From Eubacteriales bacterium (GTDB lineage: Bacteria > Bacillota > Clostridia > Oscillospirales > CAG-272), in assembly GCA_041655935.1 (NCBI GenBank), contig JBBAEK010000006.1:3390-67389 (forward strand): a stretch of 64,000 nt of DNA. Direction: 5' to 3'. The notes below the pieces were generated by a model that searched no databases, was not told the DNA's origin, and was given only the letters and a program-made list of their open reading frames with translations. The position numbers and the translations under genes are program-made. Positions 13,372 through 55,241 of the stretch are shown piece by piece. Each line of letters opens with the position of its first letter. The stretch's first letter is position 1.

Positions 13372-13380
13372 GTACGCACA

Positions 13381-13637
13381 TGCGATGATCGGAAACAAGT
13401 AGTCCGGCAAACCTTTTGCAGAGACGCTGCGGCAGGTGCGAGCAGCGAAAGAGTGGCCGGTATGAATACCTTCCGGGAGCAGCGCACCGAAAGGCCGCGA
13501 GTAGGCTGCGACGGCGACGCCCGTTATGCGTCGGGGTCATCACCTGACCCGTCAAGGCCGTCTGTCGCGAGACAGCGGTAAATTGAGGTGGTAACACGGC
13601 CACGGTCGTCCTCTGCGATGCCAGAGGACTTTTTTTA
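13381..13637 (+). promoter_or_regulatory. T-box leader (tRNA-sensing transcription attenuator)
   Basis: The Stem I base is TGCGATGA...AAGTAG and the distal elements are GCAGAGAC...GGCAGGTGCGAGC. The candidate specifier loop is CCGAAAGGCCGCGAGTAG. The T-box sequence is AATTGAGGTGGTAACACGG (13581-13599). The terminator pairs GTCCTCTG (13608-13615) with CAGAGGAC (13622-13629) and is followed by T7. Confidence 0.8.
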
Positions 13638-13669
13638 TTGCCCAAAGCCAGTCTGAAAGGATGTCCAGC

Positions 13670-15301
13670 ATGCCCATCACCGAATTTCTGCGAACCAACG
13701 CCGCCCGGTACCCCGACGAGGTTGCCTTGGTGGAGATCAACCCCACCGACCGGCCCGCCGCCCCCCAGGCATGGCGGGAGTTTCAGCTCATCGAGCCCGC
13801 CCGCGCCGACAGCTACCGGCGCACCCTGACCTGGGCGCAGTTTGACCGCGTGGCCAACCAAGTCGCCCATATGCTCCAGGCTCACGGGGTCAAACCCGGC
13901 GAAAAAGTCGCCATTTTGCTTATGAACTGCCTGGAATGGCTCCCCCTGTATTTCGGCGTGTTGCGCGCGGGTGCCATCGTGGTGCCCATGAACTATCGCT
14001 ACACCGCCGAGGAGATTCAATACTGTCTGGAGCTGGCAGATGTCAGTCTGCTGGTCTTCGGGCCCGAGTTCACCACCCGCATCGAGCAGGTCCTGCCCAA
14101 GCTGCGGGTACGGGAATTTTTCTTTGTGGGCGAGCCCCGCCCCGCCTTTGCCGGGTCGCTTTCGGAGGCAGACAGCTTCCCCGCCGCCCCGCCCGCCCTC
14201 CCCTTGCGGGATGAGGACGACGCCGCCATCTACTTTTCCTCCGGCACCACCGGCTTTCCCAAAGCCATCTTACATACTCATGCTGCCCTGGTCTCCTCCT
14301 GCCTCACCGAGCAGCACCACCACGGCCAGTGCCATGAGGACGTCTTTTTGTGCATCCCCCCGCTCTACCATACCGGCGCCAAAATGCACTGGTTCGGCAG
14401 TCTGCTCTCGGGCAGCCGCGCGGTGTTGCTGCGCGGGGTGAGGCCCGAGTGGATCTTACAGACAGTCAGTGCGGAGCACGTCACCATTGTCTGGCTGCTG
14501 GTGCCGTGGGCACAGGACATCCTTGACGCCATCGAGCGGGGCGAGCTCAAGCCGGAGCAGTACCGCCTCTCCCAGTGGCGGCTGATGCATATCGGCGCCC
14601 AGCCCGTCCCCCCCTCTCTGGTCAAGCGCTGGCTGACCTGCTTCCCCCACCATCAGTATGACACCAATTATGGCCTTTCCGAGTCCATCGGTCCCGGCTG
14701 TGTGCATCTCGGGGTGGAGAACATTGACCATGTCGGTGCCATTGGCAAGGCGGGCTATCTCTGGCAGACCAAAATCATTGACGAACAGGGAGCCCCGGTG
14801 AAGCAGGGGCAGGTCGGTGAGCTGGCGGTCAAGGGGCCCGGCGTGATGAAAGAATACTACAAAAACCCCGAGGCGACCGCCGCCATCCTAAAGGAGGACG
14901 GCTGGTTGCTGACCGGCGATATGGCGCGCGAGGACGAGCAGGGCTTCATTTACCTGGTAGACCGCAAGAAGGATGTCATCATCTCCGGGGGCGAGAATAT
15001 TTACCCCGTTCAGATCGAGGACTTCCTGCGCGCCCACCCGCACATCAAGGATGTGGCGGTCATCGGACTGCCCGAGTCGCGGCTGGGCGAGATCACCGCC
15101 GCCATCATCTCCTGCAAGGACGGGTGCAGCCTGACCGAAGCGGAAGTACAGTCCTTCTGCGAAGGCCTCCCCCGCTACAAGCGGCCAAGAAAGGTCATTT
15201 TTGCCGAGGTTCCCCGCAATCCTACCGGCAAGATTGAAAAACCAAAGCTCCGCGAGATCTACTGCGGTGTCCGCCTGGTGGAAGCGCAGACCACCAAGTA
15301 A
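13670..15301 (+). CDS. AMP-dependent synthetase/ligase (acyl-CoA-synthetase-like adenylate-forming enzyme)
   Basis: The AMP-binding motifs are YFSSGTTGFPKA, YGLSES, LTGDMA and ISGGENIYP, with the C-terminal lysine in PTGKIEK. I prefer the ATG at 13670 (GAAAGGA, 8 nt, ATG) over 13661. Confidence 0.9.
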   Translation: MPITEFLRTNAARYPDEVALVEINPTDRPAAPQAWREFQLIEPARADSYRRTLTWAQFDRVANQVAHMLQAHGVKPGEKVAILLMNCLEWLPLYFGVLRAGAIVVPMNYRYTAEEIQYCLELADVSLLVFGPEFTTRIEQVLPKLRVREFFFVGEPRPAFAGSLSEADSFPAAPPALPLRDEDDAAIYFSSGTTGFPKAILHTHAALVSSCLTEQHHHGQCHEDVFLCIPPLYHTGAKMHWFGSLLSGSRAVLLRGVRPEWILQTVSAEHVTIVWLLVPWAQDILDAIERGELKPEQYRLSQWRLMHIGAQPVPPSLVKRWLTCFPHHQYDTNYGLSESIGPGCVHLGVENIDHVGAIGKAGYLWQTKIIDEQGAPVKQGQVGELAVKGPGVMKEYYKNPEATAAILKEDGWLLTGDMAREDEQGFIYLVDRKKDVIISGGENIYPVQIEDFLRAHPHIKDVAVIGLPESRLGEITAAIISCKDGCSLTEAEVQSFCEGLPRYKRPRKVIFAEVPRNPTGKIEKPKLREIYCGVRLVEAQTTK

Positions 15302-17923: not shown

Positions 17924-19761
17924 CGTCCCTCACCTCCCAAGCAGTTGGCCCCGCAACCGCTGCATTGCTCCGCGCAGTTCGGCGTGGGCCGGGCGGCATA
18001 GGCCCGCTCCCGCTCCCGCCACAGAAACGCTTTGCTCACCCCGCAGTCAATCATATCCCAAGGAAGGGTCTCGTCCTTCTCCATCACGCGGTTGGCATAA
18101 AAGGTCGGGTCTATGCCGCAACGGCGAAAGACCTCCATCCATTTGTCAAAATCAAAGCACTCGTCCCATGCGTCAAAGAAAAGCCCCTCGCGGCAGGCCG
18201 TCGCCAGTGCCGGCGCCAGCCGCCTGTCCCCCCGGGCAAAGACCGCCTCCAGGTGAGAGGCCCGGGCGTCGTGCCAGTGGTAGCGCACCTGTCGGTTGGT
18301 GATCTCCCCGCGCAGAAACTGCTGTTTTTCCTCCAGAGTGCCCAGCGGGTCCTGCCCGTCCCACTGAAAAGGGGTAAAGGGTTTGGGGATGAAGCAGGAG
18401 ACGCTCACCGTCACATTGAGCCCGCGGCTCCGCTGCTCTTTGGGAATCGCGCGGTAGGTCTCGGTCACCTTGTCGGCCAGGCGGGCAATGCCCCGCAAGT
18501 CCTCCTGCCCCTCGGTGGGCAGCCCTTGCATAAAGTAGAGCTTCACCGAGCTTTTCCCGTTTCGGAAGGCAATGTCCACCGCCCGCACCAGGTCCGCCTC
18601 GGTGATATTCTTATTGATCACATCCCGCAGCCGCTGGGTGCCCGCCTCCGGGGCAAATGTCAGACCCCCCTGACGAACAGAGGAGACACGCTCCATCAGC
18701 TCCTGGCTGAAGCTGTCCAGCCGCAGGGAGGGCAGCGACAGCCCCACATGGGCGTCGTCGGTCCATGTCAGCAACAGTCGGGTCAGCTCGTCCAGTTTTG
18801 AGTAGTCGCTGATGCTCAGCGACACCAGGGACACCTCGTCATAGCCCGTGTTTTCATAGAGGCACCTGGCTTGCCGCGCCAGGGTCTCGGGTTTTTTTTC
18901 ACGGTTCGGGCGGCACACCATTCCCGCCTGACAGAACCGACAGCCGCGAATACAGCCGCGATTGACCTCCACGACCACGCGGTCATGCACGGTTTCGATA
19001 TAGGGCAGCACAAAGTGGGTGGGAAAGGGAGCGCTGTCAAGATCAGCCACAATTCTTTTTCTGACTTTGGCCGGCACATCGCCGTATCGGGGCACAATCC
19101 CTGCCACCCGACCGTCCTCCCGGTAGCTCACCTCATACAGGGAGGGCACATACATCCCCCCGATCTTGGCGGCCTCACGCAAAAAGCCCTGCTTGGTATA
19201 GCCCCCCGCCTCTTTCATGCGGATATACAGCCGGCAAAGCTCCGGCAGCGACTCCTCCGCCTCGCCGATGGCAAACACATCAAAAAAGTCGGCCACCGGC
19301 TCGGCATTATAGGCACAGGGCCCGCCCCCGATGATCAAGGGGGCGCTCTCGTCCCGCTCCGCGGCATAAAGGGGAATCCCCGCCAGGTCCAGCATATGCA
19401 GCGCGGTGGTGTAGCACAGTTCGTACTGCAAGGAAAACCCCACCATCTCAAACGCCGTCAGCTGCTCTCCGCTTTCCATCGTACACAGGGGGATGCCGTG
19501 CGCCCGCATGGCACGGTCCATATCGAGCCACGGGGCATAGGCCCGCTCGCAGGCAATGTCCTCGGCACGGTTCAGCACATCGTACAGGATGCGCACCCCT
19601 AAGTTGGACATGCCGATTTCATACGTATCCGGGAAGCAGAGGGCAAATCGTAACTTGACCGCCGCGCTGTCTTTTTGGACCTGCCCGTATTCGGCACCGA
19701 TGTACCGCCCCGGCTTGCTCACGGTCTTGAGTAGGGTATCTATGCGCTGTTGATGGGTCAT
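17908..19761 (-). CDS. B12-binding-domain radical SAM protein (TIGR03960 family)
   Basis: The N-terminus is SKPGRYIGAEYGQV. The radical SAM cluster is CIRGCRFCQAG. An ATGA overlap joins it to the upstream gene. Confidence 0.9.
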   Translation of the reverse strand: MTHQQRIDTLLKTVSKPGRYIGAEYGQVQKDSAAVKLRFALCFPDTYEIGMSNLGVRILYDVLNRAEDIACERAYAPWLDMDRAMRAHGIPLCTMESGEQLTAFEMVGFSLQYELCYTTALHMLDLAGIPLYAAERDESAPLIIGGGPCAYNAEPVADFFDVFAIGEAEESLPELCRLYIRMKEAGGYTKQGFLREAAKIGGMYVPSLYEVSYREDGRVAGIVPRYGDVPAKVRKRIVADLDSAPFPTHFVLPYIETVHDRVVVEVNRGCIRGCRFCQAGMVCRPNREKKPETLARQARCLYENTGYDEVSLVSLSISDYSKLDELTRLLLTWTDDAHVGLSLPSLRLDSFSQELMERVSSVRQGGLTFAPEAGTQRLRDVINKNITEADLVRAVDIAFRNGKSSVKLYFMQGLPTEGQEDLRGIARLADKVTETYRAIPKEQRSRGLNVTVSVSCFIPKPFTPFQWDGQDPLGTLEEKQQFLRGEITNRQVRYHWHDARASHLEAVFARGDRRLAPALATACREGLFFDAWDECFDFDKWMEVFRRCGIDPTFYANRVMEKDETLPWDMIDCGVSKAFLWRERERAYAARPTPNCAEQCSGCGANCLGGEGRWCRA

Positions 19762-22652
19762 GTGAGTTCTTTTCCAATCTTGTGTTTCATCATCGCCGCC
19801 TCAATGAACAGCAGCGGCGGTACCAGCGAAGCCACTTGGCAAACGACTGCCGGCAGTGCATACGCGGTAAAGGAGGGCACGAAGGCGGCGAGCAACACGC
19901 CCAGCCCGCCTGCCAGAATCGTGAGGATGACCGACAGATATCGCAGGCGTTTTTGCGTGGTCCGGTAGCCCTTGAAGAGCAACGCCGCATGGTACAGATC
20001 CCGCACCCTGCCGCCACGGCTGAACAGTCCGGTGCGGCACCCGCCGCCCGAGGGGTTCTCTCCGTCGGCTGTCTGCCGATGCAACAGACCAATGCGGCAC
20101 ACGCTGAGATAGGTCAGCCTGTCCAGCAGCTTTTCGGTCATATTGGGGTCCGCCGTTTTGAGGACGGGGTAGATATGTTGCTTGTCCAGTTGTTCCGCAT
20201 ACTTCACAAATCCCGCCCGGATGCCGTAGGCCAGGTACAGCTTGGCACAGGGCTGCCCCTCGACGGCGGTGAACATGATGCGGACATCCCCCCGCTCAAT
20301 CTGTCCCTCGTCGTCCGAGTCATAGTAGAAATTGATTCCCTTGCGCTCCATATAGGTCCCGCGCCCCGCCAAAAAGGCGACCCCGTCAATCACGGCGGCC
20401 AGCCCGTCCTCCGCCACTTCACTGACCAGGACCGCGGGCGGGTTCGGAGTGTCCGTGCGGAACACCCCCTGCAGAGGCCCCCCCACCTCGCCAAAGAGGG
20501 CGGACAGGTACCCCATCACTTTATCCAGCCGGTTTTCACCGCACAGCTTGATTTTTCGCACCTGTACCTGCTCGATGGGAAAGGCGTCGGTGTCCGCAAA
20601 GGTCATCACACCCACCCGGGCATACTCTCTCACCGCCCGCTCCCCCGCCACAGTCAGCCCGTGCTTGGCGAGCAAACGGCGCAGCCGTGCAAAGGTGTAC
20701 CGATGCAGAAAGGCGGCGGACAGGGGCAGCGCCATCAGACAGGTGCTCAGCCCGCGATGCAGGGCGCTCAGTACCCCGCCGTCCGCAAACCACGCGACCA
20801 CCGCCGCGGAGGCAGCCATCACCAACGCGACAATCAGGGGAAAGCGAAGCTGCTGCCACTCGTCATAGCGCACATTGAGCTGGGCCAGAAAACCGCTGTC
20901 CTGCTCGGTACGCGGCTGTGTCTGTATGAGCACCTTAGCAGAGGCCTCCTCGCCCTGTTGCAGACCCGGATACTCCTTGGTACTCCCCAGGGTGGCGCAC
21001 AGCCCTTCCTTTTGCGCCAGCCAATCGGTGGCACTTTGGTACACCCCCCGCACAGACAGCAGCTCAAAGCAGGCCGGGACCAGGAGCAACAGTGCCGCCG
21101 GCAAGCCATAATACACCGCATGCCCCACATGCGCAAAATACTGGTACAGTGTCATGGCACTGCTCAGGCACAAGCCGCACCAGGCCGGCGCCCAGATATC
21201 AACCAATCCTCGCCCCAGACGGCGCAGCGAGCGGTAGAGCGGCCGCCAGGCCACTCCCGCCGCTATCAGGAGAAGCTGCAGGTCAAACAGCAACCACACG
21301 CCACCTACCCGCGCGAGTCCCATCCGCGCCGGCAGGCCCTGCCGCCAGGCGGGCAGGTAGGTCAACAAGACGAGCAGTACGCACAGCGCGCCCTGCACGA
21401 TCAGCCCCACCAGCCGGCGGCGGCACTCTTTTCGCAACTTTTCAAGCCCCGCCTGCGGGTCCTGCTCGTCAAAGTATGCCTCGTCGGCGGGCAATCGCTG
21501 CCGCTTTTGCACCCGCTGAATGGCGGCGCGCCGCTTGTCGCGCCCGGCATCCCTGCCCTCGCGTCCGCTCGACCCTTTGTCGCGCCCGGCTGCCCCTTTT
21601 TTGACCCCGTTTTCTTTATTTTTGTCCGGCGTGTCCGTGCGTTGCAGGGTCTCCAGCCGGCTCATATCCACCTCGGTAAAGGTGCCCTCCCCATGTTCCC
21701 CTCGGACGGACGGCACCGTCTCGGTCACCGAGGCGAAATCCTGCAGACCTGGCGCGGGCGGACTGACCTCAATTGCCTCTATCGTCCCCGTCTTCGCCGG
21801 GTCGTCTCCGGCAGCCTTGGCAGGCTCCGCGGACTGAAACAGGAACAGTCGTCCCTTCCTTTTCCCCAAAGCCTCGCTATACGCGGGCATCGCCGGGGCA
21901 CTCTCCGCCGCAGTCTCCGTTGTGGTAGCCTTTGCCGGGGGGCTCTCCACCCGGTCACTCTCCGCCGGGACAGTTTCTGCCGGGGCGGCCTCCGCCGGGG
22001 CGCTCTTTGTGCGGGCACTCTCCACCCGGGCACTCTCCGCCGAAGTGCTGTCCTCCGTCCGCCGCTTCAGCTGCGGAGCGACGGACGCGCCCTCTCCCTG
22101 CCGGGAAAGGGGTCCCCTTGCCTGCCCTTGATTTTCATGTTCGGCCGCCGCCGGGTGCACCTCCCGCACAGCGGCTTTTTGCGCCACAGCAGCGCCCGCC
22201 GGCAGCTTGTCCCTTGCCGCCGTAGCCGTCGCTCCCTGCTCGTTTGGCTCCGTCACCGCAGCCCCCGCCTGTCGAGCGGCAGAGGTAAAGGGGGCGACCC
22301 TCTCAGGCGCACCCCTGTCCGGCGCCCTGCGGGTGTCCGATAGCACCGCTTCCTGCTCGGAGGGCACCGCCATTCCATCCTGTGCGGCCTGCCGCTCCGA
22401 CGGAGTAGCCTGTCCCTTGACCCCTGCCGCTTGTCGGCCGGACGGTGCCGCACGATGCTCGCCCGTGTCTTTGCTCGGCTTGGCGGATGACTCCTGCTCG
22501 GCTTGGTGCAGGATCTGCTGCACATCCACCCCCTCCGCCGCCCCCTGCTCGTCCGTGCGCGTGGCGTCGGCGTTGAGGTTGGCCTTGAGACGTGTCAACA
22601 AGTCCCTGATATACTCTTTTTCCTGTTGATTGATGCGCTCTTGATCGGCCAT
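19758..22652 (-). CDS. P1B-type ATPase homolog with degenerate catalytic motifs and a long disordered Ala/Pro/Glu/Arg-rich N-terminal region
   Basis: An RBS (GAAGGAGGG) precedes the ATG at 22652. About 430 aa of low-complexity sequence come first, then TM helices. The segment LAKHGLTVAGERAVREYARVGVMTFADTDAFP is colinear with the canonical A(e/k)xGiLiKggeale...vvFDKTGTLT. LKTADPNMT aligns with mlTGDnxxTA, and TADGENPSGG aligns with vGDGINDAPA. Confidence 0.7.
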   Translation of the reverse strand: MADQERINQQEKEYIRDLLTRLKANLNADATRTDEQGAAEGVDVQQILHQAEQESSAKPSKDTGEHRAAPSGRQAAGVKGQATPSERQAAQDGMAVPSEQEAVLSDTRRAPDRGAPERVAPFTSAARQAGAAVTEPNEQGATATAARDKLPAGAAVAQKAAVREVHPAAAEHENQGQARGPLSRQGEGASVAPQLKRRTEDSTSAESARVESARTKSAPAEAAPAETVPAESDRVESPPAKATTTETAAESAPAMPAYSEALGKRKGRLFLFQSAEPAKAAGDDPAKTGTIEAIEVSPPAPGLQDFASVTETVPSVRGEHGEGTFTEVDMSRLETLQRTDTPDKNKENGVKKGAAGRDKGSSGREGRDAGRDKRRAAIQRVQKRQRLPADEAYFDEQDPQAGLEKLRKECRRRLVGLIVQGALCVLLVLLTYLPAWRQGLPARMGLARVGGVWLLFDLQLLLIAAGVAWRPLYRSLRRLGRGLVDIWAPAWCGLCLSSAMTLYQYFAHVGHAVYYGLPAALLLLVPACFELLSVRGVYQSATDWLAQKEGLCATLGSTKEYPGLQQGEEASAKVLIQTQPRTEQDSGFLAQLNVRYDEWQQLRFPLIVALVMAASAAVVAWFADGGVLSALHRGLSTCLMALPLSAAFLHRYTFARLRRLLAKHGLTVAGERAVREYARVGVMTFADTDAFPIEQVQVRKIKLCGENRLDKVMGYLSALFGEVGGPLQGVFRTDTPNPPAVLVSEVAEDGLAAVIDGVAFLAGRGTYMERKGINFYYDSDDEGQIERGDVRIMFTAVEGQPCAKLYLAYGIRAGFVKYAEQLDKQHIYPVLKTADPNMTEKLLDRLTYLSVCRIGLLHRQTADGENPSGGGCRTGLFSRGGRVRDLYHAALLFKGYRTTQKRLRYLSVILTILAGGLGVLLAAFVPSFTAYALPAVVCQVASLVPPLLFIEAAMMKHKIGKELT

Positions 22653-22675: not shown

Positions 22676-23695
22676 CTACTGACCCTTGCGTTGCCTTGCC
22701 GCCTCACACAAAATCACCGCGGCGGCACTCGATACATTGAGAGAGTTGATTTTCCCATACAGTGGGATGCTCACTGAAAAATCGCATTTTTCCCTCACCA
22801 GGCGGGAGATGCCCGCCCCCTCGCTGCCAAGCACGATGGCGGCGGGACCGCGCAGATCGACACGATGGTAGGGCTCCCCGTCCATATCGGCGGCATAAAT
22901 CCACAACCCCTGTTCTTTCAGGGTGTCGAGGGCAACGGCAAGATTGGTGACTCTGGCCACCGGCAGGTGCGCGAGCGCACCGGCGGAAGCGCGCGCCACC
23001 GCCGACGTCAGCCCGACAGCCCGCCGCTTGGGGATCACCACGCCATGCGCCCCGGCACACTCCGCGGAGCGAATGAGCGCTCCTAAGTTGTGCGGGTCCT
23101 CAATGCCGTCCGCCACCACCAGCAAGGGCGCTTCCCCCAAGGCCGCCGCCCGGTCCAGCATCTCCTGTAGCGACACATAGTTCTGTTCGGCCACCATGCC
23201 CACAATGCCTTGGTGGTTTCTGTGCCCGCACAGCAACTCCAGCCTCGCCCGCTCCACCTCTATGATGGGGACTTTCAGGGCGGCGATGTCCTGCAGTAAC
23301 CGTACCAGTCCGCCGTCCCGATCCCCTTTGGCCACAAACACTTTGTCAATGTCCCGCCCGGCTTTCAGCATTTCCCGTAGCGCATTTCGCCCGGCAATCA
23401 GACTCTCGCTCGGCGAGTCCCCCTCTGCCTCAGGCATCACGCCCTGACGGGTCAATGTCTCCCCCGACAGTTCGGAAGCCGTCACCGGAGCCCCCCGCCG
23501 CTCGGTCTCGGCACCCCGCCGTTCGCCTCCGACGGCCCGCCGCTCGTTCCCGGCGCCCCGCGCCGGAAAACGCCCATCCGTCCGACCGGCAGGCACCTTT
23601 TTGGTGCCTTGCTGCACCATCCCGGCGCCCCGCGCCGCAGATTTCTCATTCACCCGCCCGGCAACCGTCGTCTTTTTTCCGTTTTCCTCGTGCAT
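22676..23695 (-). CDS. rlmB: 23S rRNA (guanosine-2'-O)-methyltransferase RlmB (SpoU/TrmH family) with an Arg/Gly-rich N-terminal extension
   Basis: The sequences IAGRNALREMLKAGRDIDKVFV, EDPHNLGALIRSAECAGAHGVVIP, IVLGSEGAGISRLV and INSLNVSSAAAVILCE are present. The start is taken at MHEENGKK (ATG at 23695), which follows GGAAAGGG. Confidence 0.85.
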   Translation of the reverse strand: MHEENGKKTTVAGRVNEKSAARGAGMVQQGTKKVPAGRTDGRFPARGAGNERRAVGGERRGAETERRGAPVTASELSGETLTRQGVMPEAEGDSPSESLIAGRNALREMLKAGRDIDKVFVAKGDRDGGLVRLLQDIAALKVPIIEVERARLELLCGHRNHQGIVGMVAEQNYVSLQEMLDRAAALGEAPLLVVADGIEDPHNLGALIRSAECAGAHGVVIPKRRAVGLTSAVARASAGALAHLPVARVTNLAVALDTLKEQGLWIYAADMDGEPYHRVDLRGPAAIVLGSEGAGISRLVREKCDFSVSIPLYGKINSLNVSSAAAVILCEAARQRKGQ

Positions 23696-23800
23696 ATTCA
23701 GCCCTTTCCGGCGTTTGCCGCGGCAAAGCGGCTCTCTTTGATTCACAATTCCCTTGATAATATGTTACGATCAAAACGCTTCTCTTGCCATGGCACCTTG

Positions 23801-23894
23801 GCGCAGCCGTCCATCAGGCAAGCCGCACGGATGTGCGGCAGGAGCGGTAGCTCCCCGTATGGCAAAAGCAATACGGATTGCCTGTATTATACCA
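23801..23894 (-). promoter_or_regulatory. Extended -10 promoter plus conserved triple-hairpin leader module, copy A (upstream of rlmB)
   Basis: On the minus strand the module reads TGGTATAAT-ACAGGCAATC-[CCGTATTGC TTTT GCCATACGG]-G-[GGAGC TACC GCTCC]-T-[GCCGCAC ATCC GTGCGGC]-TTGCCTGATGGACGGCTGCGC. It is about 80 percent identical to 43521-43614, and the differences lie in loops or are compensatory. Confidence 0.55.
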
Positions 23895-24013
23895 CAACTC
23901 ACAAAAAAAGTATAGCCCCATGTCAAAAGTTGCAAATCAAAAGCCGGACATCCGCCCCCCGAACACCCGCACCCTCCCGGGCACACCCGCCTCGCCATCA
24001 AACCCTATCCGCA

Positions 24014-24341: not shown

Positions 24342-24458
24342 CTGCACTACCTCGCTTAAAATGGTTAAAAATTTTGCCCTTAGACGGATTCCAACCGACA
24401 CCTTTGATAACAACGCTCTCCCTTAAGCTACTGGGGCATATAGACATTTTAATTAAGA

Positions 24459-38578: not shown

Positions 38579-41500
38579 TCACCCCAACCGTTTCAAGCGC
38601 AGCACGGGCAACATGACAGCCGTTTCTTGCTCGTCATTTTCGCCCCGCCAAGCAACGATATACTCCACGCGCGCCCCCACGGGCTGGTAGCCCTTACTTT
38701 CCAGCTCCTTCAGTTTCTCGACAAACGCCTTGGAGAATTTGGCGACGCATTGTTTTTCCCCGTGGAGCACAGCCCGGAGAAAAGGGGCATCGACCACCAA
38801 CTCGTCCCCGCTGCGAAGCTGCATCACACTTTCTTTCCTTTCCTTGAAAAAGTCCAGGAAAACATCTTTGTGCGTCAGTTGAAGAGACATTTCCGTGGGT
38901 TCACCGTACTCGGCAGTGTCCCTGGATTGCATGACCCCGTCAAGGGCAAACTGATTAAGAACAGGGGTGTTGCAGTGGATATAGAGCGCCTCTTTGGCAC
39001 GAGTCAGGGCGACATACAGCTTTCGCTTCTCCTCATCACTCGAGGCAGACACTTGGTTTAAGAGCAAGTAGACGGTGTCAAACTCCCGCCCCTTGGCTTT
39101 GTGAATGGTCGAGATCGTGACGGCCTCCCCTTCCTCTTCATAAAAATCCTCATAGTTGGATTCCTTGATGAATTCATCCAGGTCCGTCCGGAATTTGTGC
39201 TCGGACACGCTTTCAAATTCTTTGAGCATCCGCAGACAATTGGGCAAGCAGGTGCTCCCGGCATATACCACTGCCAACCGCTCTTTTGCTGCCTGCCACA
39301 GTGACTCGTCAATGATGGGTGTGTGGAGCTTGTCATCAATCAACTTTAGGAAGAACCGCACTTCCGCCAGATTGTACAGCTTGAAGGCCTCGTTTGACTG
39401 TATCAGCTTGGCGCGGATGCCCCTTTGGGTCAACAGGTCGAGCATCTGCAACGCCTCATGGTTGGTGTTGGTCAGCACACACGCCCTCTCTCCTCGGTAT
39501 GTCTGTGCCACGCGATGGGCGAGAGGCTCCTCGATATGCTTTGATGTATGCCGGGTAATCTCCACCCTGCCGGGCTCTGCCTGCACCGCCTGAATGGGGT
39601 CTGACTTCATCCGTTCACGCAAGGTCGCGGCAAAAGCATTGCTCAACGCCACAATGCTGCGCTTGCTTCTGTAATTCTCCGGCATCTGATAGGTAACAGC
39701 ACCGTAGTCCTCGACAAGCGCGCGCAGGTATTTGGAATGCGAGCCTCTGAACTCATAGATATTTTGGTCGTCATCCCCTACCGCAATCACGCGCATATCG
39801 TCATTGGCATGAATCAGCGCTTGGACGAGCGCAAATTCATTCTCATCCATATCCTGCGCCTCATCAATCACCAACACCCGCTTCATGATTTTCCCCGGTT
39901 CCACCTCACCGCGTTCAATCATATCGGCGGCATTTCTGACCACATCGGCAACCCCTTCCAGCGTGCCGATCTTGCCCAGCAGATCAAAACAATAGGAGTG
40001 AAATGTTTTGATCTCCACATAATGCGCCGCATTGCCTATCAGCTCCATTAAGCGCTTTTTGAACTCGGTGGCAGCCGCGCGCGAAAATGTCAGCATCAAC
40101 AGTTGTTCGTTCTTGACATCCTCCAGGTGCAAGAGTGAGGCAAGCTTGTGCACCAACACACGGGTTTTCCCACTCCCGGGACCTGCCGCCACCACAATGT
40201 ATTTGGATTCCTGGTCATCGATAATTTCCCGCTGCACATCGGACAGTTGCTCAAAAAGCTCGTTGAACTTTTGAGGCGTCATATTGCGCTCAATTTCTTT
40301 GGCGCGTTCTCCCTTGAAATAGGTCGCAATAAATTTTTTAAAGTCCATCTGAAAATAATCATGCACAAACTGTAGTGCCTGCTGATAGTCCCGCACCATC
40401 AGGTTGGCGTACTCGCCGACAATGTGGATTTGTCTGATTTTTTGCTTGTAGAACTCATCCAGCAATCGATAGTCGTCCACCTTGTACTGAATCCTGTTGT
40501 CGGGCACCAGCCGCTTGATTTCCATGGCCTGATACAGCACCAGGAAGCCCCCCTCCAGCTTCATCGCGCCGATTTTCGAGAGGTAAAGCAATGCATCTGC
40601 CACATCAGGCAAACTGAGGGTAGACTTATCCACCCCCAGGACGGGAGCCGCCTTGTAGGCGTTGAACAGACCGACCAGCGAAAACAATACCGGAGCATCT
40701 TCCTGGCGGTTCGGCTGCGCCTCATGCTTGGCATATAGCTCTGTCACAATAAATTCACAGATATCCAGCCTGCGCGCCAGCTTCTCAGAGAGCGGCCGGA
40801 GGCTCATGGCAGGCTGGACCTCAACCATTCCTGCCGCGGCATCCTCTTTTTTATGAACATAACCCTTGATGGTCAGGAAATAGAGCAATGTTTTGATATT
40901 CTTGACGCTTGAGGCAGTCACGCCCAAGGCAAGCGCCTCCTCGTTCCACTCTTTGTAGTGGAGAGAGCAGCCCTCCTCAGGCAGCTTGTCAAACAGAAAC
41001 TTCTCCAGCTGTGCAAATCGGTCGAGCACTTGCAGCGATTTGTTTTGCGTGTCACTCCTCAGGATATAGGCGGACATATCGGCATCATCCCGGAGCAGTC
41101 CCTCCTGCCGAAGCAAATTGATCAGTTCAATGGCACTTTCCTTCTCAATCCCCAAAATATCCGCCAGATAATCCACCCGTGACTCTGCCTCTTCGTTGCC
41201 TGCCCGGGCAATGCTGCGGCTGGAAATCAGGGACTTGATGATTCGTTTGGCAGTCTGCCTCTGCGACTCGGAAAACAGCGGCGAACGCTCTATCCGAAAA
41301 CTTGCCTCCTGCATATTTTTGGCACAAATGCTGGTGGCAAACAGGTGGGGCACATTTTGCCCGCGCTTGATATAGCCGGCCCGCTCCAACGCGGCAATGG
41401 CGGTCTTGACTCTGGTCTCCATTTCCGACCCGGAATCCTTCCATCCCGCCTGACGGGCAATTTCAAGCGGCGAGCAACAAATGCTCTTCCGCGTTTTGGT

Positions 41501-43369
41501 CAAGTCTTTGATGGCCCGCCATACCTGCTGAATTTCGCTGATGCTGAGCTTGGTCTGATTCAAGAGGATAAAATGCTTGTTCAGGTCATTGTCATGAAAG
41601 AGCACATAACAGTCCGCCTCGAGCGAAGAGTCTCGCCCCGCCCGCCCGGCCTCCTGCACATAGTTTTCCAAGGAATCGGAAATATCATAGTGGATCACCA
41701 GACCCACATCCTTTTTGTCCACCCCCATGCCGAACGCCGAGGTCGCCACGATCACCTGCACCTCATTGCGCATGAAAGCCTCTTGATGTTTCACCTTCTC
41801 CACAGGATCCATTTTGCCGTTAAAGGGCAGCGCTGAGAGGCCGTCGCTCGTCAGCTTGGTGGCCAGTTGATGGGTGCGCTTGGTGCGGGAAACATAGACA
41901 ATGCACGGGCAGCGCTTCTGCGCAATCAGCGCGCGCAGGGTGGCATACTTTTCCTCATCGGTTTCCTTGTAAAGAACCACATAGCGGAGATTTTCACGCG
42001 TCGCCGACGACGCAAACAGGGAAAGAGTGATGTCCAGCTTATGCTTGAAATACTCGCAAATATCACTGATCACCTTTTGCTTGGCGGTAGCGGTAAAGCA
42101 GGAAACGGGGATGGGATTTTTATCGATCTTTTTCTGTTGCAGCTCACGGATGAAGTCTCCGATGTACAGGTAGTCCACGCGAAAATCCTGCCCCCAGGCA
42201 GAAAAGCAATGCGCTTCATCAATCACAAAGCGAACAATATTGCGTGAGAGCAGCATTTTTTCAATAGTTTTTGACCGCAACTGCTCCGGGGATATGTATA
42301 AAAGCGTCGCCATCCCGTTTGCGATGCGCTCATAGGCTTCTGCCCGCTCCACCGGGCTGAGCAACCCGTTGACCGTCACAGCGTCCACGATGCCAAACTC
42401 CGCCAAATTGTCCACCTGGTCCTTCATCAGCGACTGGAGCGGGGAGATGACCACCGTGAGCCCGTGCACATTCTTACCCGCCATCAGCGCCGGTAACTGA
42501 AAGGTGATGGACTTGCCCCCGCCGGTGGGAAAGACAGCCAGCAGCGATTGCCCCTCCACCGCCGCCCGGACTGCCTGCTCCTGTAGCGGCTCCCCGTGAT
42601 AGGTACGAAAAGAGCCATAGCCGAAAATCTCTTTCAGTCCTTTGTGGATGTTTAGCCTCTCTGCACAGTAGGCGCACCCCTGTGCGCAGGGAGTGTTGCA
42701 CAAAAACTTCACCACATTCTCTATTCTCGGGTAATGCTTCAGGAGCCACGGCGGGGTAATGGACCGATAGTCGTCGCTGCCGATCAGCGCCAGCGCATAG
42801 GCCAGCTCCACGGGGTAATGCTTGATCAGCGAAGAGACCGCGGCATTTGAACACATGCGAGCGGCATACTCAGCCTCAATGTACTTTCCCAGAAGGGTCT
42901 GTTGCGGCACAAAACCGACATGCTTGAAAAAACCCCTGAACTCCTCCACGGGAGACAAAAGGCAACCGTATATTTGCTTCCGTTGCGGGGAGAGCGCATG
43001 GAAAGCATTGAGCTCATCATAAAAGAGCTTCTTCGCTTTTTGCGCATCATTCAGCGGATTGTTCAGCGCATCCGACTGGAGCTTATCATCCTTCAGCAGC
43101 GCATGATAAGGACGTTTCGGAAAGAGCAAAGGAGAAAGATAGAGTGTGTCAATGTAGGCGTCTGTCACACGCCTCGGGAGATGTGGTTTGATGAATGACA
43201 GATCATGGTGGATAATATTGTGCCCGCAAAGATATTCCGCGCCGGAGATAAAATCGCAAAAATCCCGTACAGATGCGCTGTGAAATATCGCCCCGTCACT
43301 GCGCACCGCACCCAGATCATGTATTTTGTGATCATCGACACCAATCTCGCTGTCGATAAACACCATCAT
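38579..43369 (-). CDS. Tri-domain helicase: N-terminal DEDD 3'-5' exonuclease + RecQ-family SF2 helicase + UvrD/PcrA-like SF1 helicase
   Basis: The exonuclease motifs are FIDSEIG and HNIIHHDL. The RecQ motifs are FPTGGGKSITFQLPAL and FVIDEAHCFSAWGQDFR. The UvrD motifs are AAGPGSGKTRVLVHKLA, VLVIDEAQDMDENE, TISTIHKAKGREFDTV and LYVALTRAKEALYI. The start is taken at MMVFID (ATG at 43369), which lies 9 nt after GAGGAG. Confidence 0.9.
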   Translation of the reverse strand: MMVFIDSEIGVDDHKIHDLGAVRSDGAIFHSASVRDFCDFISGAEYLCGHNIIHHDLSFIKPHLPRRVTDAYIDTLYLSPLLFPKRPYHALLKDDKLQSDALNNPLNDAQKAKKLFYDELNAFHALSPQRKQIYGCLLSPVEEFRGFFKHVGFVPQQTLLGKYIEAEYAARMCSNAAVSSLIKHYPVELAYALALIGSDDYRSITPPWLLKHYPRIENVVKFLCNTPCAQGCAYCAERLNIHKGLKEIFGYGSFRTYHGEPLQEQAVRAAVEGQSLLAVFPTGGGKSITFQLPALMAGKNVHGLTVVISPLQSLMKDQVDNLAEFGIVDAVTVNGLLSPVERAEAYERIANGMATLLYISPEQLRSKTIEKMLLSRNIVRFVIDEAHCFSAWGQDFRVDYLYIGDFIRELQQKKIDKNPIPVSCFTATAKQKVISDICEYFKHKLDITLSLFASSATRENLRYVVLYKETDEEKYATLRALIAQKRCPCIVYVSRTKRTHQLATKLTSDGLSALPFNGKMDPVEKVKHQEAFMRNEVQVIVATSAFGMGVDKKDVGLVIHYDISDSLENYVQEAGRAGRDSSLEADCYVLFHDNDLNKHFILLNQTKLSISEIQQVWRAIKDLTKTRKSICCSPLEIARQAGWKDSGSEMETRVKTAIAALERAGYIKRGQNVPHLFATSICAKNMQEASFRIERSPLFSESQRQTAKRIIKSLISSRSIARAGNEEAESRVDYLADILGIEKESAIELINLLRQEGLLRDDADMSAYILRSDTQNKSLQVLDRFAQLEKFLFDKLPEEGCSLHYKEWNEEALALGVTASSVKNIKTLLYFLTIKGYVHKKEDAAAGMVEVQPAMSLRPLSEKLARRLDICEFIVTELYAKHEAQPNRQEDAPVLFSLVGLFNAYKAAPVLGVDKSTLSLPDVADALLYLSKIGAMKLEGGFLVLYQAMEIKRLVPDNRIQYKVDDYRLLDEFYKQKIRQIHIVGEYANLMVRDYQQALQFVHDYFQMDFKKFIATYFKGERAKEIERNMTPQKFNELFEQLSDVQREIIDDQESKYIVVAAGPGSGKTRVLVHKLASLLHLEDVKNEQLLMLTFSRAAATEFKKRLMELIGNAAHYVEIKTFHSYCFDLLGKIGTLEGVADVVRNAADMIERGEVEPGKIMKRVLVIDEAQDMDENEFALVQALIHANDDMRVIAVGDDDQNIYEFRGSHSKYLRALVEDYGAVTYQMPENYRSKRSIVALSNAFAATLRERMKSDPIQAVQAEPGRVEITRHTSKHIEEPLAHRVAQTYRGERACVLTNTNHEALQMLDLLTQRGIRAKLIQSNEAFKLYNLAEVRFFLKLIDDKLHTPIIDESLWQAAKERLAVVYAGSTCLPNCLRMLKEFESVSEHKFRTDLDEFIKESNYEDFYEEEGEAVTISTIHKAKGREFDTVYLLLNQVSASSDEEKRKLYVALTRAKEALYIHCNTPVLNQFALDGVMQSRDTAEYGEPTEMSLQLTHKDVFLDFFKERKESVMQLRSGDELVVDAPFLRAVLHGEKQCVAKFSKAFVEKLKELESKGYQPVGARVEYIVAWRGENDEQETAVMLPVLRLKRLG

Positions 43370-43520
43370 CTTTGCCATCTCCTCTCTCACCCCGCAGTCT
43401 CTGCCTCCCAAGGACACAGCCACGCACGACCCAAAGGCATGACTCCCCCTTTCCTTTTTTGCTTATTTCCATATGATGATACCATGAGTAAAAAAAAATG
43501 TAGACATGCCGGACATTTTT

Positions 43521-43634
43521 GCGAAGCCGTCAATCAGGCCCCCGCACGAAAGTGCGGGGAGGAGCGTCAGCTCCCGGTATGGCGACTGCCATACCGATTG
43601 CCTGCATTATACCATATTTCCATCCGAAATTCAA
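43521..43634 (-). promoter_or_regulatory. Sigma-A promoter plus conserved triple-hairpin leader module, copy B (upstream of the fusion helicase)
   Basis: On the minus strand: TTGAAT (43634-43629), a 17-nt spacer, then TGGTATAAT. The module continues GCAGGCAATC-[CGGTATGGC AGTC GCCATACCG]-G-[GGAGC TGAC GCTCC]-T-[CCCCGCAC TTTC GTGCGGGG]-GCCTGATTGACGGCTTCGC. Confidence 0.55.
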
Positions 43635-52137: not shown

Positions 52138-52214
52138 CTTACATAAAATCAGATGCAACCAAAAGCAGGCGTTTTGGCATAGAACACGCACTTAAAATTG
52201 AATATTTCGAGCGA

Positions 52215-52372
52215 AGAATTCGGGAGAGACCGCTGCACAGCGGCGCCGAAGGTGAATTGCGCTAAACTCTCAGGCAAAAGAACCGAATTTGGACGAAACT
52301 CTGGAAAGCCATCAAATTGGCACCGAAGAAGCAATTCCTTTGGGAAGAATCTTTCAGGTAAAAAGGCAGAGA
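52215..52372 (+). promoter_or_regulatory. Tandem glycine riboswitch
   Basis: Aptamer 1 reads CGGGAGAGACCGCTGCACAGCGGCGCCGAAGGTGAA...ACTCTCAGGCAAAAGAAC. Aptamer 2 reads CTCTGGAAAGCC...GGCACCGAAGAAGCAA...TCTTTCAGGTAAAAGGCAGAG. It sits directly upstream of gcvT. Confidence 0.85.
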
Positions 52373-52403
52373 CGCACCATTTTTCGTGTGTCCTGTCTTT
52401 TTT
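52365..52403 (+). terminator. Riboswitch expression-platform terminator
   Basis: GGCAG-A-GACGCAC pairs with GTGTGTC-CTGTC (12 bp with one bulge and one or two G-U pairs), and T6 follows. The 5' arm overlaps the 3' end of aptamer 2, consistent with a glycine-ON switch. Confidence 0.7.
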
Positions 52404-52429
52404 CTTGCAAAAACGGAGGTAGACACAGC

Positions 52430-53518
52430 ATGGATTTGAAAACGGCACTCTACGATTGGCATGTGGCCGGCGGCGGAAAGATGGTTCCGTTTGCGGGGTA
52501 CCTGCTGCCCGTCCAATACGAGACGGGCATCATCGCCGAACATATGGCGGTCCGGACAAAGGCGGGGCTTTTTGATGTGTCTCATATGGGAGAAGTGCTT
52601 TATGAAGGCAAGGACGCGCTTGTGAATCTCAACCGCCTGCTCACCAACGACTTTTCAAACATGGTATGCGGCCAGGTTCGTTACAGCCTGATGTGCAACG
52701 AGCAAGGCGGCGTGGTCGATGACCTGATTGTCTATAAATACAGTGATGTCAAGTACATGGTGGTGGTCAACGCCGCCAATCGCGCGAAAGATGTCCGCTG
52801 GATGCAGGCGCATGCGTTCGGCGAGGTCGATATTCGGGATATTTCCGATGACATGTCACAAATAGCGCTGCAGGGGCCCTTATCCACCGAAATTCTTAAA
52901 AAAATCACGGATGAGCAATCCATTCCCAAAAAGTATTATTATTTTAACGGCGACGCCAAAATCCGAGATGTCAACTGCATCATCTCCTACACCGGCTATA
53001 CCGGAGAGGTGGGCTACGAGATCTATATGCCGAGCCAGGATGCGCCTGCGATTTGGGAGCTGTTGCTGGAGGCTGGTAAAGACCTGGGCTTGCTCCCTTG
53101 CGGGCTGGGCGCGCGCGATACATTGCGGCTGGAAGCGTCGATGCCCCTGTATGGCCATGAGCTCGACGAGGATATCACGCCGTTTGAGGCAGGGCTGCAT
53201 TTTGCCGTGAAGATGGAGAAAGACGACTTTCTCGGCAAGTCGGCGCTGGAACGGCTGGGCCCGCCGAAAAGAAAACGCGTCGGGCTGACCATCACAGGGC
53301 GCGGCATTGTACGGGAACACACCGCACTCTATGTCGGCACACAGCCAGTCGGCATCACGACATCAGGCACCTACCTCCCCTACCTGGGCAAGGCGGTTGC
53401 CATGGCGCTCATAGATAATGACTTTGCTGAAATCAACACAACGGTAGAGGCGGATGTCCGCGGGCGGAGAATCACCGCCGAGGTCACCGCGCTTCCGTTT
53501 TATAAAATCAAACGATAA
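52430..53518 (+). CDS. gcvT: Glycine cleavage system aminomethyltransferase (T protein)
   Basis: The sequence is [55 protein letters not shown]. The ATG at 52430 follows ACGGAGG. Confidence 0.95.
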
Positions 53519-53528
53519 GGGAGACAAA

Positions 53529-53912
53529 ATGATGGCAATCAGAAGCGGCTTGAAGTACACCAAAACACATGAATGGGTGGAATTTACTGATGAAAAAACA
53601 GCGAAAATCGGCTTAACCGATTTTGCGCAAAAAGCTCTCGGGGACCTGGTGTTTGTCAATTTGCCCGAGGCAGGAAACGCGATTACTGCCGGCGAATCCT
53701 TTGCGGACGTGGAATCGGTCAAAGCCGTATCCGACGTATACAGCCCCGTCACCGGTACCATTGAATCGGTGAACGAAGATTTGCTTGATGCCCCCGAGAA
53801 CATCAACAGCGCCCCCTATGACAGCTGGTTCATCGTGGTGGGCGATATCACCGACAAAGTCGAACTGTTAGACGCCGCAGAATATGAAAAACTCTGCGCC
53901 GAGGAGGCATAG
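53529..53912 (+). CDS. gcvH: Glycine cleavage system H protein
   Basis: The sequence [10 protein letters not shown] is present, and the lipoyl-lysine motif is [15 protein letters not shown]. Confidence 0.95.
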
Positions 53913-53915
53913 CGC

Positions 53916-55241
53916 ATGGGCGGCTATACCCCGGTGACCGACAATGAAAAACGGGAGATGCTGGATAAAATCGGCGCCTCCGGCGTCAGCGATTTGTTCT
54001 GTGCCATTCCCGAAGAGGTGAAAATCGACAGCCTCAATATACCGGAAGGAAAATCCGAGCTGGAAGTTCTTTGCGATATGGAAAGGCTTGCGGCCAAAAA
54101 TAAAGTGTTCGCCTCTGTTTTTCGTGGCGCGGGCGCTTATCACCACTTTATCCCGCCGCTTGTCAGGAGCATTGTCGCCAAAGAAGAGTTTTTAACCGCC
54201 TATACCCCCTATCAGGCGGAGATCAGCCAGGGGCTTTTGCAGGGCATTTTTGAGTTCCAAACCATGATCTGCGAGCTGACCGGCATGGATGTCTCCAACG
54301 CCTCGGTGTACGACGGAGCCACCGCGACCGCGGAGGCGGTGACCATGTGCCGTGATAAAAAGCGCACCAAGATCATTCTGTCCGCGGCCTTGCATCCCAT
54401 GACCGTCGCGACCGTCCAGACCTATTGCGGCGACTGTGAGATTGTCACAGCGCCTGTCCGGGACGGGAAAACAGACCTCACGGCGCTCCGCCGGCTGGTA
54501 GGCGAGGATACCGCCTGTGTGTGCGTACAGCAGCCCAACTTTTACGGGATGATCGAGGATGCCGATGCCATCGGGGAAGCGGTCCACAGCGCCGGCGCCA
54601 AATTCATCATGGCCGTCAACCCCATCGCCGCGGCGATTCTGACCCCCCCCGGGGACTGCGGCGCCGATATCGCCGTGGGTGAAGGACAGCCTTTGGGGAT
54701 GCCGCTTTCTTTCGGCGGCCCCTATCTGGGATTTATGGCCTGCACTGACGCCATGATGAGAAAGCTCCCGGGCAGAATCGTCGGCGAAACCCTGGACAGA
54801 AACGGAAAACGAGCGTTTGTGTTAACCATGCAGGCAAGAGAGCAACATATCCGGCGCGAGAAAGCGTCGTCCAATATCTGCTCGAACCAGGCGCTTTGCG
54901 CGCTGACCGCGTCGGTCTATCTGTCCTGTATGGGCGCGTCCGGGCTTCAAAAAACGGCTGAACTATGCGTCTCCAAAGCGCATTACGCCGCCGAGCAACT
55001 CTGCTCCGTCAAAGGCTTCACCTTGAAACATACGGGTGAATTCTTTCACGAGTTCGTCACCGTTTGCCCGGTGGATGCAAACATTCTTTTACATCAGCTT
55101 GAAGAGCGGGATATCCTGGGCGGCTATCGGCTGAGTGAGCGCGAGATACTCTGGTGCGTCACCGAAATGAATTCAAAAGAGCAGATCAATGCTCTGGTAG
55201 CGGCAGTGAAGGAGGTGTGCCTCAGTGAAACTGATTTTTGA
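53916..55241 (+). CDS. gcvPA: Glycine dehydrogenase (aminomethyl-transferring) subunit 1
   Basis: The sequence FLTAYTPYQAEISQGLLQGIFEFQTMICELTGMDVSNASVYDGATA is present. Confidence 0.95.
   Translation: MGGYTPVTDNEKREMLDKIGASGVSDLFCAIPEEVKIDSLNIPEGKSELEVLCDMERLAAKNKVFASVFRGAGAYHHFIPPLVRSIVAKEEFLTAYTPYQAEISQGLLQGIFEFQTMICELTGMDVSNASVYDGATATAEAVTMCRDKKRTKIILSAALHPMTVATVQTYCGDCEIVTAPVRDGKTDLTALRRLVGEDTACVCVQQPNFYGMIEDADAIGEAVHSAGAKFIMAVNPIAAAILTPPGDCGADIAVGEGQPLGMPLSFGGPYLGFMACTDAMMRKLPGRIVGETLDRNGKRAFVLTMQAREQHIRREKASSNICSNQALCALTASVYLSCMGASGLQKTAELCVSKAHYAAEQLCSVKGFTLKHTGEFFHEFVTVCPVDANILLHQLEERDILGGYRLSEREILWCVTEMNSKEQINALVAAVKEVCLSETDF

Follow-up and report, generated by a model that had tools for sequence, protein, structure and literature searches.

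A duplicated module of an extended -10 box and three tetraloop hairpins upstream of two unrelated operons in a Eubacteriales bacterium: a putative reused promoter and leader cassette

We describe a short module, in which an extended -10 box is followed immediately by three tetraloop hairpins, that is present in two copies on the minus strand of a 64,000-nucleotide stretch of DNA from a Eubacteriales bacterium (contig JBBAEK010000006.1, positions 3,390 to 67,389; the window in what follows). One copy (A) precedes an rlmB operon and the other (B) precedes a large helicase gene. The module is a real duplicated unit and not a chance repeat, and its interpretation as a cassette of DNA, about 100-120 bp long and restricted to one lineage, copies of which were placed in the 5' regions of two unrelated operons of a spore-forming member of the Clostridia, is well supported. 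As to its function, the best reading we can offer, and we offer it tentatively, is a reused ("putative mobile") promoter joined to a 5'-stabilising hairpin leader; the good support extends to the cassette part of this reading, and the stabilising part is one that we infer.

The original prediction held that a 94-nt arrangement in front of the helicase recurs at 23801-23894 with about 80 percent identity. In agreement with this, a blastn comparison of copy B (43518-43614) with copy A (23798-23894), both on the minus strand, yields an alignment of 98 nt (80.6% identity, E 3e-16). The window has two occurrences of a 35-nt core pattern for which shuffles give an expectation of 0.00, and a covariance model derived from the two copies and searched with filters off recovers these two copies and no diverged third one within the window. 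The boundary of the repeat falls exactly at TGGTATAAT, the non-loop parts are all conserved, and similarity between the two loci is absent in the flanks outside the module.

Copy B opens with the extended -10 box TGGTATAAT (43606..43614, minus strand, as for all features of the two copies), which is the first conserved element of the repeat and is identical to its counterpart in copy A at 9/9 positions. A promoter scan pairs it with the -35-like hexamer TTGAAT (43629..43634), which lies outside the repeated block and is not conserved in copy A; the resulting promoter, TTGAAT-17-TATAAT, has 10/12 hexamer matches and an upstream TG. One base after TGGTATAAT comes CAGGC (43604-43600), with AAT next, and then hairpin 1 (43596-43575; 9 bp, CGGTATGGC-AGTC-GCCATACCG, loop AGTC), hairpin 2 (43574-43561; 5 bp, GGAGC-TGAC-GCTCC, loop TGAC), a single T, and hairpin 3 (43559-43540; 8 bp, CCCCGCAC-TTTC-GTGCGGGG, loop TTTC), so that the near-consensus promoter and the three tetraloop hairpins of 9, 5 and 8 bp reported at the outset are all present. 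GCCTG (43539-43535) supplies the 3' side of an outer helix with CAGGC, and the alignments place behind it a conserved unstructured tail, ATTGACGGCTTCGC (43534-43521), with weaker similarity continuing to about 43501; no stable fold was found in the tail region 43501..43534. The module as a whole lies at -236 to -143 relative to the helicase start codon.

Copy A (23894-23801) has the same order of elements. It begins 14 nt downstream of the resident rlmB promoter, the ancestral-type TTTGCA-16-TATACT (23909..23936), which is immediately upstream of it. Its own TGGTATAAT (23886..23894) is without a good -35 and was not called as a full promoter by the scan. There follow CAGGC(AA) (23884-23878) as the 5' side of the outer helix, hairpin 1 (23876-23855; 9 bp including one T/C mismatch), hairpin 2 (23854-23841), hairpin 3 (23839-23822; 7 bp), (TT)GCCTG (23821-23815) as the 3' side of the outer helix, and the conserved tail ATGGACGGCTGCGC (23801..23814), the last delimited from the alignments. 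A change of GG to TT beside hairpin 3 extends the outer helix to 7 bp in this copy (CAGGCAA/TTGCCTG). With the rlmB start codon at 23695, the module occupies -199 to -106, and a further metagenome assembly from this species has it at 100% identity.

Both copies are predicted to fold as a four-way junction well under their shuffled controls. The core of copy B (43535..43604) has an MFE of -57.2 kcal/mol, with the MFE and centroid structures being the same (z -5.41), and that of copy A (23815..23884) has an MFE of -52.1 kcal/mol (z -3.49). The junction is closed in both predicted folds by CAGGC/GCCTG, as had been suggested, and in both copies hairpins 1-3 persist in folds of the entire leader from a 5' end placed inside CAGGCAA. 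An examination of the 18 alignment columns that differ between the copies shows that 7 of the 12 loop columns and 11 of the 74 others are affected (hypergeometric P=0.0024), which bears out the earlier impression that substitutions concentrate in the loops. Within the stems, the pair table contains the G-C versus C-G swap at the second pair of hairpin 1 and the T/C mismatch of copy A, both previously noticed, together with another compensatory swap that had escaped notice, C-G/G-C in hairpin 3 at its outer end. The remaining stem changes amount to that one mismatch and one lost terminal pair, hairpin 3 being one pair longer in copy B as stated before. When the same number of substitutions is placed at random, two or more double-sided swaps arise with P=0.04, and the broken pairs number at most two with P=0.004. 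The pattern of differences is non-random at about the 10^-3 level, from two sequences only; a formal covariation count on two sequences has no statistical power (23/25 pairs invariant, with 258/500 shuffles doing equally well).

All stem pairs are Watson-Crick, and consequently neither the strand nor the choice between RNA and DNA can be read from them; the model gives a score to the reverse strand as well (18.7 and 17.6 bits). The three palindromes are mutually unrelated, each is perfect and has a spacer of exactly 4 bp in both copies, and the sequences of the stems are conserved beyond pairing alone. A DNA-level element, in the form of three operator palindromes or a cruciform beside the -10 box, would draw on the perfect palindromes with their constant spacers and on the conserved stem sequences. 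Against it, each of the three unrelated palindromes would call for a dimeric regulator of its own, and the compensatory swaps preserve self-complementarity and not a fixed half-site sequence, and we regard such an element as highly improbable. Two further candidates were rejected. A small peptide would have to be encoded by an ATG-initiated frame of 25 codons in copy B, which has ATA at that position in copy A and a ribosome-binding site in neither copy. The repeat pair of a diversity-generating retroelement is likewise dismissed, as the differences are not adenine-specific and there is no coding target. The translations of A and B share too few words for a six-frame protein search to serve in finding further copies, and the gene caller places no ORF over either copy.

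The two modules precede unrelated genes, as originally proposed. Downstream of copy A is a SpoU/RlmB methyltransferase (Pfam SpoU_methylase and SpoU_sub_bind), followed by a 964-aa ORF, a radical-SAM gene and a DUF2344 gene in an operon of about 6.5 kb. The 964-aa ORF (19758-22652, minus strand), which lies immediately downstream of rlmB, has no Pfam match, and in 4/4 syntenic relatives rlmB is likewise followed by a large unannotated protein of 1022-1156 aa. The nearest RlmB relatives share only 63-70% protein identity with the one encoded here. The gene order that the relatives share with the window is SBP_bac_5, DUF4364, sigma factor, zinc-ribbon gene, rlmB and the large protein. The relatives syntenic at rlmB encode homologues of SpoIVA and the germination protease; the G+C content of the window is 56%. 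In all four of them the terminator of the zinc-ribbon gene is followed by TGTACA-17-TATA(C/A)T at 25-55 nt before the start codon, to which TTTGCA-16-TATACT is the equivalent in the window, and the module, which was sought at rlmB in the same four genomes, is absent from every one.

The neighborhood of rlmB also contains a tRNA-like element of 63 nt (24375-24437, minus strand) between the sigma-factor and zinc-ribbon (zf_Tbcl) genes, directly behind a TATAT box. It matches the Rfam tRNA model at 33.1 bits (gathering threshold 29), ARAGORN calls no tRNA there, and its anticodon arm is truncated (UUG-UUAU-CAA). Counterparts occur in four loci of relatives (L042 2482-2556, L043 2490-2563, and also L065 and L066), and about 70 nt are near-identical across the five genomes, with RlmB at no more than the identity given above; the G+C content of the loci that carry it is 49 to 60% where measured. 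This element has the look of a structured 5' leader or a processing signal under strong constraint.

The gene downstream of copy B encodes a protein of 1596 aa with DEAD/Helicase_C and UvrD domains by Pfam (start at 43378 or 43369), in a transcription unit of 4.8 kb or more. It had been named an Exo-RecQ-UvrD helicase; the "Exo" part was confirmed neither by Pfam nor by a PDB sequence search. For residues 1-269 of the product (gene at 38579-43378, minus strand), Pfam had no match at E up to 1 and the PDB search returned nothing meaningful; by eye only, FIDSE and HNIIHHD in this N-terminal region are motifs like those of a DEDDh exonuclease. Orthologues of the helicase with 74-75% identity occur in genomes of 36-38% G+C with different neighbors, and the module is absent from all five loci that carry the two orthologues. 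In these two low-G+C relatives the helicase is preceded by a conserved promoter and leader of about 60 nt, unrelated to the module (GGGTATAA.. GTAATAA.. ACAGA.C .. CACATC.AAG .. TGCATTT..AAAAA.AC; L059 2350-2425, L061 2365-2440).

Between module B and the helicase lie a T9 run (43498-43490, minus strand) and a second promoter-like site detected by the promoter scan, TCTACA-17-TATCAT with a TG and the box TGGTATCAT (43504-43476, minus strand); the run and the -10-like box had been pointed out from the start. Judging by the (G)GGTATAA(C/T) box that the orthologues carry at the equivalent place, this site is probably the older helicase promoter. The interval also contains a 17-codon upstream ORF, MPLGRAWLCPWEAETAG* (43387..43440, minus strand), which has a strong Shine-Dalgarno sequence (GGAAAGGGGGAG) and ends with a stop codon within the ribosome-binding site of the helicase, an arrangement that suggests translational coupling. 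In the folded leader of copy B the T9 run and ACUCA pair with the purine-rich ribosome-binding site of the helicase.

Relative to the resident promoter the module is situated downstream at locus A and upstream at locus B. This difference in position, together with its absence from the orthologous sites, argues that it is an autonomous unit acquired in this lineage. On the comparison of these loci, the module appears to be a lineage-specific inserted or duplicated cassette and not a conserved leader of either gene.

Searches for further members were made at several scales. The whole window was scanned against Rfam 15, and no family matched either copy at the gathering thresholds, in accord with the statement that it resembles no recognised riboswitch or leader class; with both copies at E up to 10 there were only meaningless partial matches of 11-15 bits. 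The same scan identified two ordinary known elements elsewhere in the window, a T-box leader (13376-13616, plus strand; 100.7 bits) preceding an ORF at 13661-15301 and a tandem glycine riboswitch (52211-52371, plus strand; 63.8 and 41.9 bits) preceding ORFs at 52289-55241. The scans of large collections required an exact match at 18-23 fixed bases in collections from which the source lineage is absent. Under these terms, the pattern CAGGCAA..GGAGC....GCTCC..GCCTGA in one genome each for 185,579 species gave 13 loci, all of them chance matches in coding DNA of unrelated phyla; GCCATACNGGGAGCNNNNGCTCC in a metagenome contig collection gave 13 matches, all by chance; and two scans of IMG/VR gave 1 and 26 matches, all chance or coding. 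The tail pattern alone is not specific as a search pattern. A blastn search with copy B found no match among plasmids and phages, and the two-copy covariance model found nothing further in about 125 kb of related loci (ten loci around rlmB and helicase genes, and 18 kb of the nearest relative), the three of the ten that belong to the source species yielding only their own two modules. The original prediction had proposed a search for further copies in this genome and related Clostridia and had itself named a lack of further homologues as a refuting outcome; none was found by the collection scans, BLAST or the covariance model, an outcome that is to be read with the exact matching of the scans and the absence of the source lineage from those collections. 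Its proposal of a functional RNA is upheld insofar as the hairpins are kept non-randomly, but homologues were not found in these searches and the module is absent from the orthologous loci. A functional RNA is a reasonable but unproven reading, and a reused promoter and leader cassette describes the evidence better.

Such a cassette has precedents. In the survey of putative mobile promoters by Matus-Garcia, Nijveen and van Passel (2012), as summarised in PMC3575422, more than 4000 families of at least 80% identity over at least 50 nt were found upstream of unrelated genes. Most of them are pairs, a likeness to known RNA families or insertion sequences is seen in few, and the mechanism of copying is described there as unknown. 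The similarity of our pair (80.6% over 98 nt) lies within these limits, and the adjacent genes, SpoU/RlmB on one side and DEAD plus UvrD on the other, are non-paralogous. However, that screen, by its outline, used the region from -150 to -50 relative to the start codon, mostly excluding the -10 box, unlike the present module, which starts at the -10 box and is mainly a predicted transcribed leader.

A possible but rather doubtful alternative is that the module is a selfish miniature repeat of the MITE, REP or BOX kind, the hairpins of which are kept for a copying machinery that recognises the folded single-stranded DNA or the repeat ends, with the promoter box being incidental and any effect on neighboring genes a by-product. 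Elements such as Correia/CREE, ERIC, BOX and REP/REPIN can supply promoters or change mRNA stability and are co-transcribed with their neighbors. The module resembles them in being short, intergenic and strongly folding, and it is inserted relative to the relatives; its all-Watson-Crick stems would allow both strands and DNA to fold equally well, and a density of two copies in 64 kb could amount to many in the whole genome. That Correia, ERIC and REPIN elements carry promoters is documented (PMC3575422). Nevertheless, these two copies are the only ones known, 18 kb of the nearest relative contain none, and an exact-pattern match is absent from every collection scanned. The module consists of three hairpins unrelated in sequence, as opposed to a long palindrome or the doublets and clusters of REP sequences, and both copies are oriented toward the downstream gene. 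There is no terminal inverted repeat beyond the 5-7 bp CAGGC(AA)/(TT)GCCTG, which is internal to the conserved block, and no target-site duplication or direct repeat flanks either copy. A recognisable MITE is rejected on the last two grounds.

If, as we tentatively prefer, the module is a reused promoter with a stabilising leader, its parts would be the extended -10 TGGTATAAT, a compact and very stable leader of three tetraloop hairpins and a short conserved single-stranded tail. RNA polymerase would start about 7 nt after TATAAT, inside CAGGCAA, as predicted from the -10 box only, and the 5' end of the transcript would consist of 2-3 unpaired bases, the 9-bp G+C-rich hairpin 1, and then hairpins 2 and 3. 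Secondary structure at the 5' end stabilises mRNA; the RppH of Bacillus needs at least 2 unpaired 5' nucleotides and prefers three or more, and a stable hairpin near the 5' end is a geometry that blocks RppH and 5'-end-dependent nucleases (PMC3997798). With a start at the predicted distance from TATAAT, the geometry of the module fits that of a 5'-terminal stem-loop stabiliser, and it is comparable to the leaders of ompA, papA and aprE (PMC3997798) in having a hairpin within 2-4 nt of the predicted 5' end; unlike those leaders it has three hairpins and a conserved tail and is duplicated at two loci. Such a 5'-terminal structure could protect the mRNA against an RppH-type pyrophosphohydrolase and RNase J, which act in 5'-end-dependent decay, and the long operon downstream would then gain from the cassette both extra transcription and a longer-lived transcript. 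The way in which the copies differ would be explained if selection acted on the hairpins but not on the sequences of the loops.

Three features fit this scheme poorly. The first is the missing -35 of copy A, and as this copy also lies just behind another promoter, its own promoter may be redundant. The second is the conserved unstructured tail, which is unexplained by a stabilising role. The third is the outer helix CAGGC/GCCTG, which is fully conserved and longer in copy A, suggesting that the closed four-way junction matters; for the junction to close, transcripts would have to begin upstream of TGGTATAAT, or else the module would have to act at the DNA level.

The tail could be accounted for differently if the two copies were paralogous small RNA genes, each driven by a promoter of its own and encoding a structured 5' domain and the tail GAUnGACGGCUnCGC, which would act as the seed in pairing with targets. 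The near-consensus promoter of copy B, the conservation of the tail despite its lack of structure, the T9 run after copy B and the second promoter, which could serve the helicase independently, are all consistent with this. But an intrinsic terminator is predicted after neither copy, copy A, which has only a -10 and no -35, is followed by the rlmB leader without a U-run and would read into rlmB, and homologues were not found in other organisms by the searches above, and we consider small RNA genes unlikely. The more specific idea that an attenuator or the end of a small RNA lies at the T9 run was abandoned: shuffled sequences fold as well as this region does (z -0.06), the scan contains no terminator there, and copy A has no equivalent U-run.

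A cis-regulatory sensor, that is, a riboswitch, protein-binding leader or attenuator that controls both operons, is suggested by the promoter-proximal position of the module in the 5' UTR on the gene strand, and by the closed four-way junction with its conserved tail. The helices are, however, all perfect, with neither bulges nor internal loops; the unpaired nucleotides of the junction number only about 4, and the loops are free to vary; an expression platform is missing, as neither a terminator nor sequestering of the ribosome-binding site is common to both copies; and the module has no Rfam match and is absent before the same genes in relatives. Control by such a sensor is thus quite improbable, and a riboswitch in particular is rejected in view of the perfect helices, the variable loops, the lack of a shared platform and the orthologous loci without the module.

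It is also conceivable by analogy that the module acts in cis on two long operons as a processive antiterminator or as a cloverleaf-shaped substrate for tRNA processing. The putL and putR sites of phage HK022 are paralogous promoter-proximal antiterminator RNAs with two hairpins that contain bulges. The module is like them in comprising two paralogous, promoter-proximal, multi-hairpin RNAs in which the stems and not the loops are conserved, although the analogy is one of function only, put acting in a phage and the module having three hairpins. In favor of this proposal, both copies lie directly behind promoters of units of about 6.5 kb and at least 4.8 kb, and a four-way junction has the topology of a cloverleaf. 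Similarity to put, EAR or tRNA models was not detected, though, a transcript from the predicted start site would lack the outer helix, and the idea is one of analogy only; we hold it to be very improbable. In its most far-reaching form the module would be a new class of self-promoting four-way-junction ("cloverleaf-like") RNA that acts in cis on the machinery by which long operons are transcribed or processed, spreads within a genome as a unit with its own -10 box, and could serve as a processive antiterminator like put or as a processing mark of the RNase P/Z type, and to this form we likewise attach very little probability.

As thousands of upstream repeat pairs have already been catalogued, the general phenomenon to which this pair belongs is not new, and as it stands the module is one more orphan structured repeat, with no match in Rfam, in a single uncultured lineage. 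If its interpretation as a promoter with a protective 5' leader is true, it would provide a clean natural example of the rewiring of bacterial expression, in which a compact "expression module" was copied before unrelated housekeeping operons, and the cassette could then serve as a portable part for the engineering of Clostridia.
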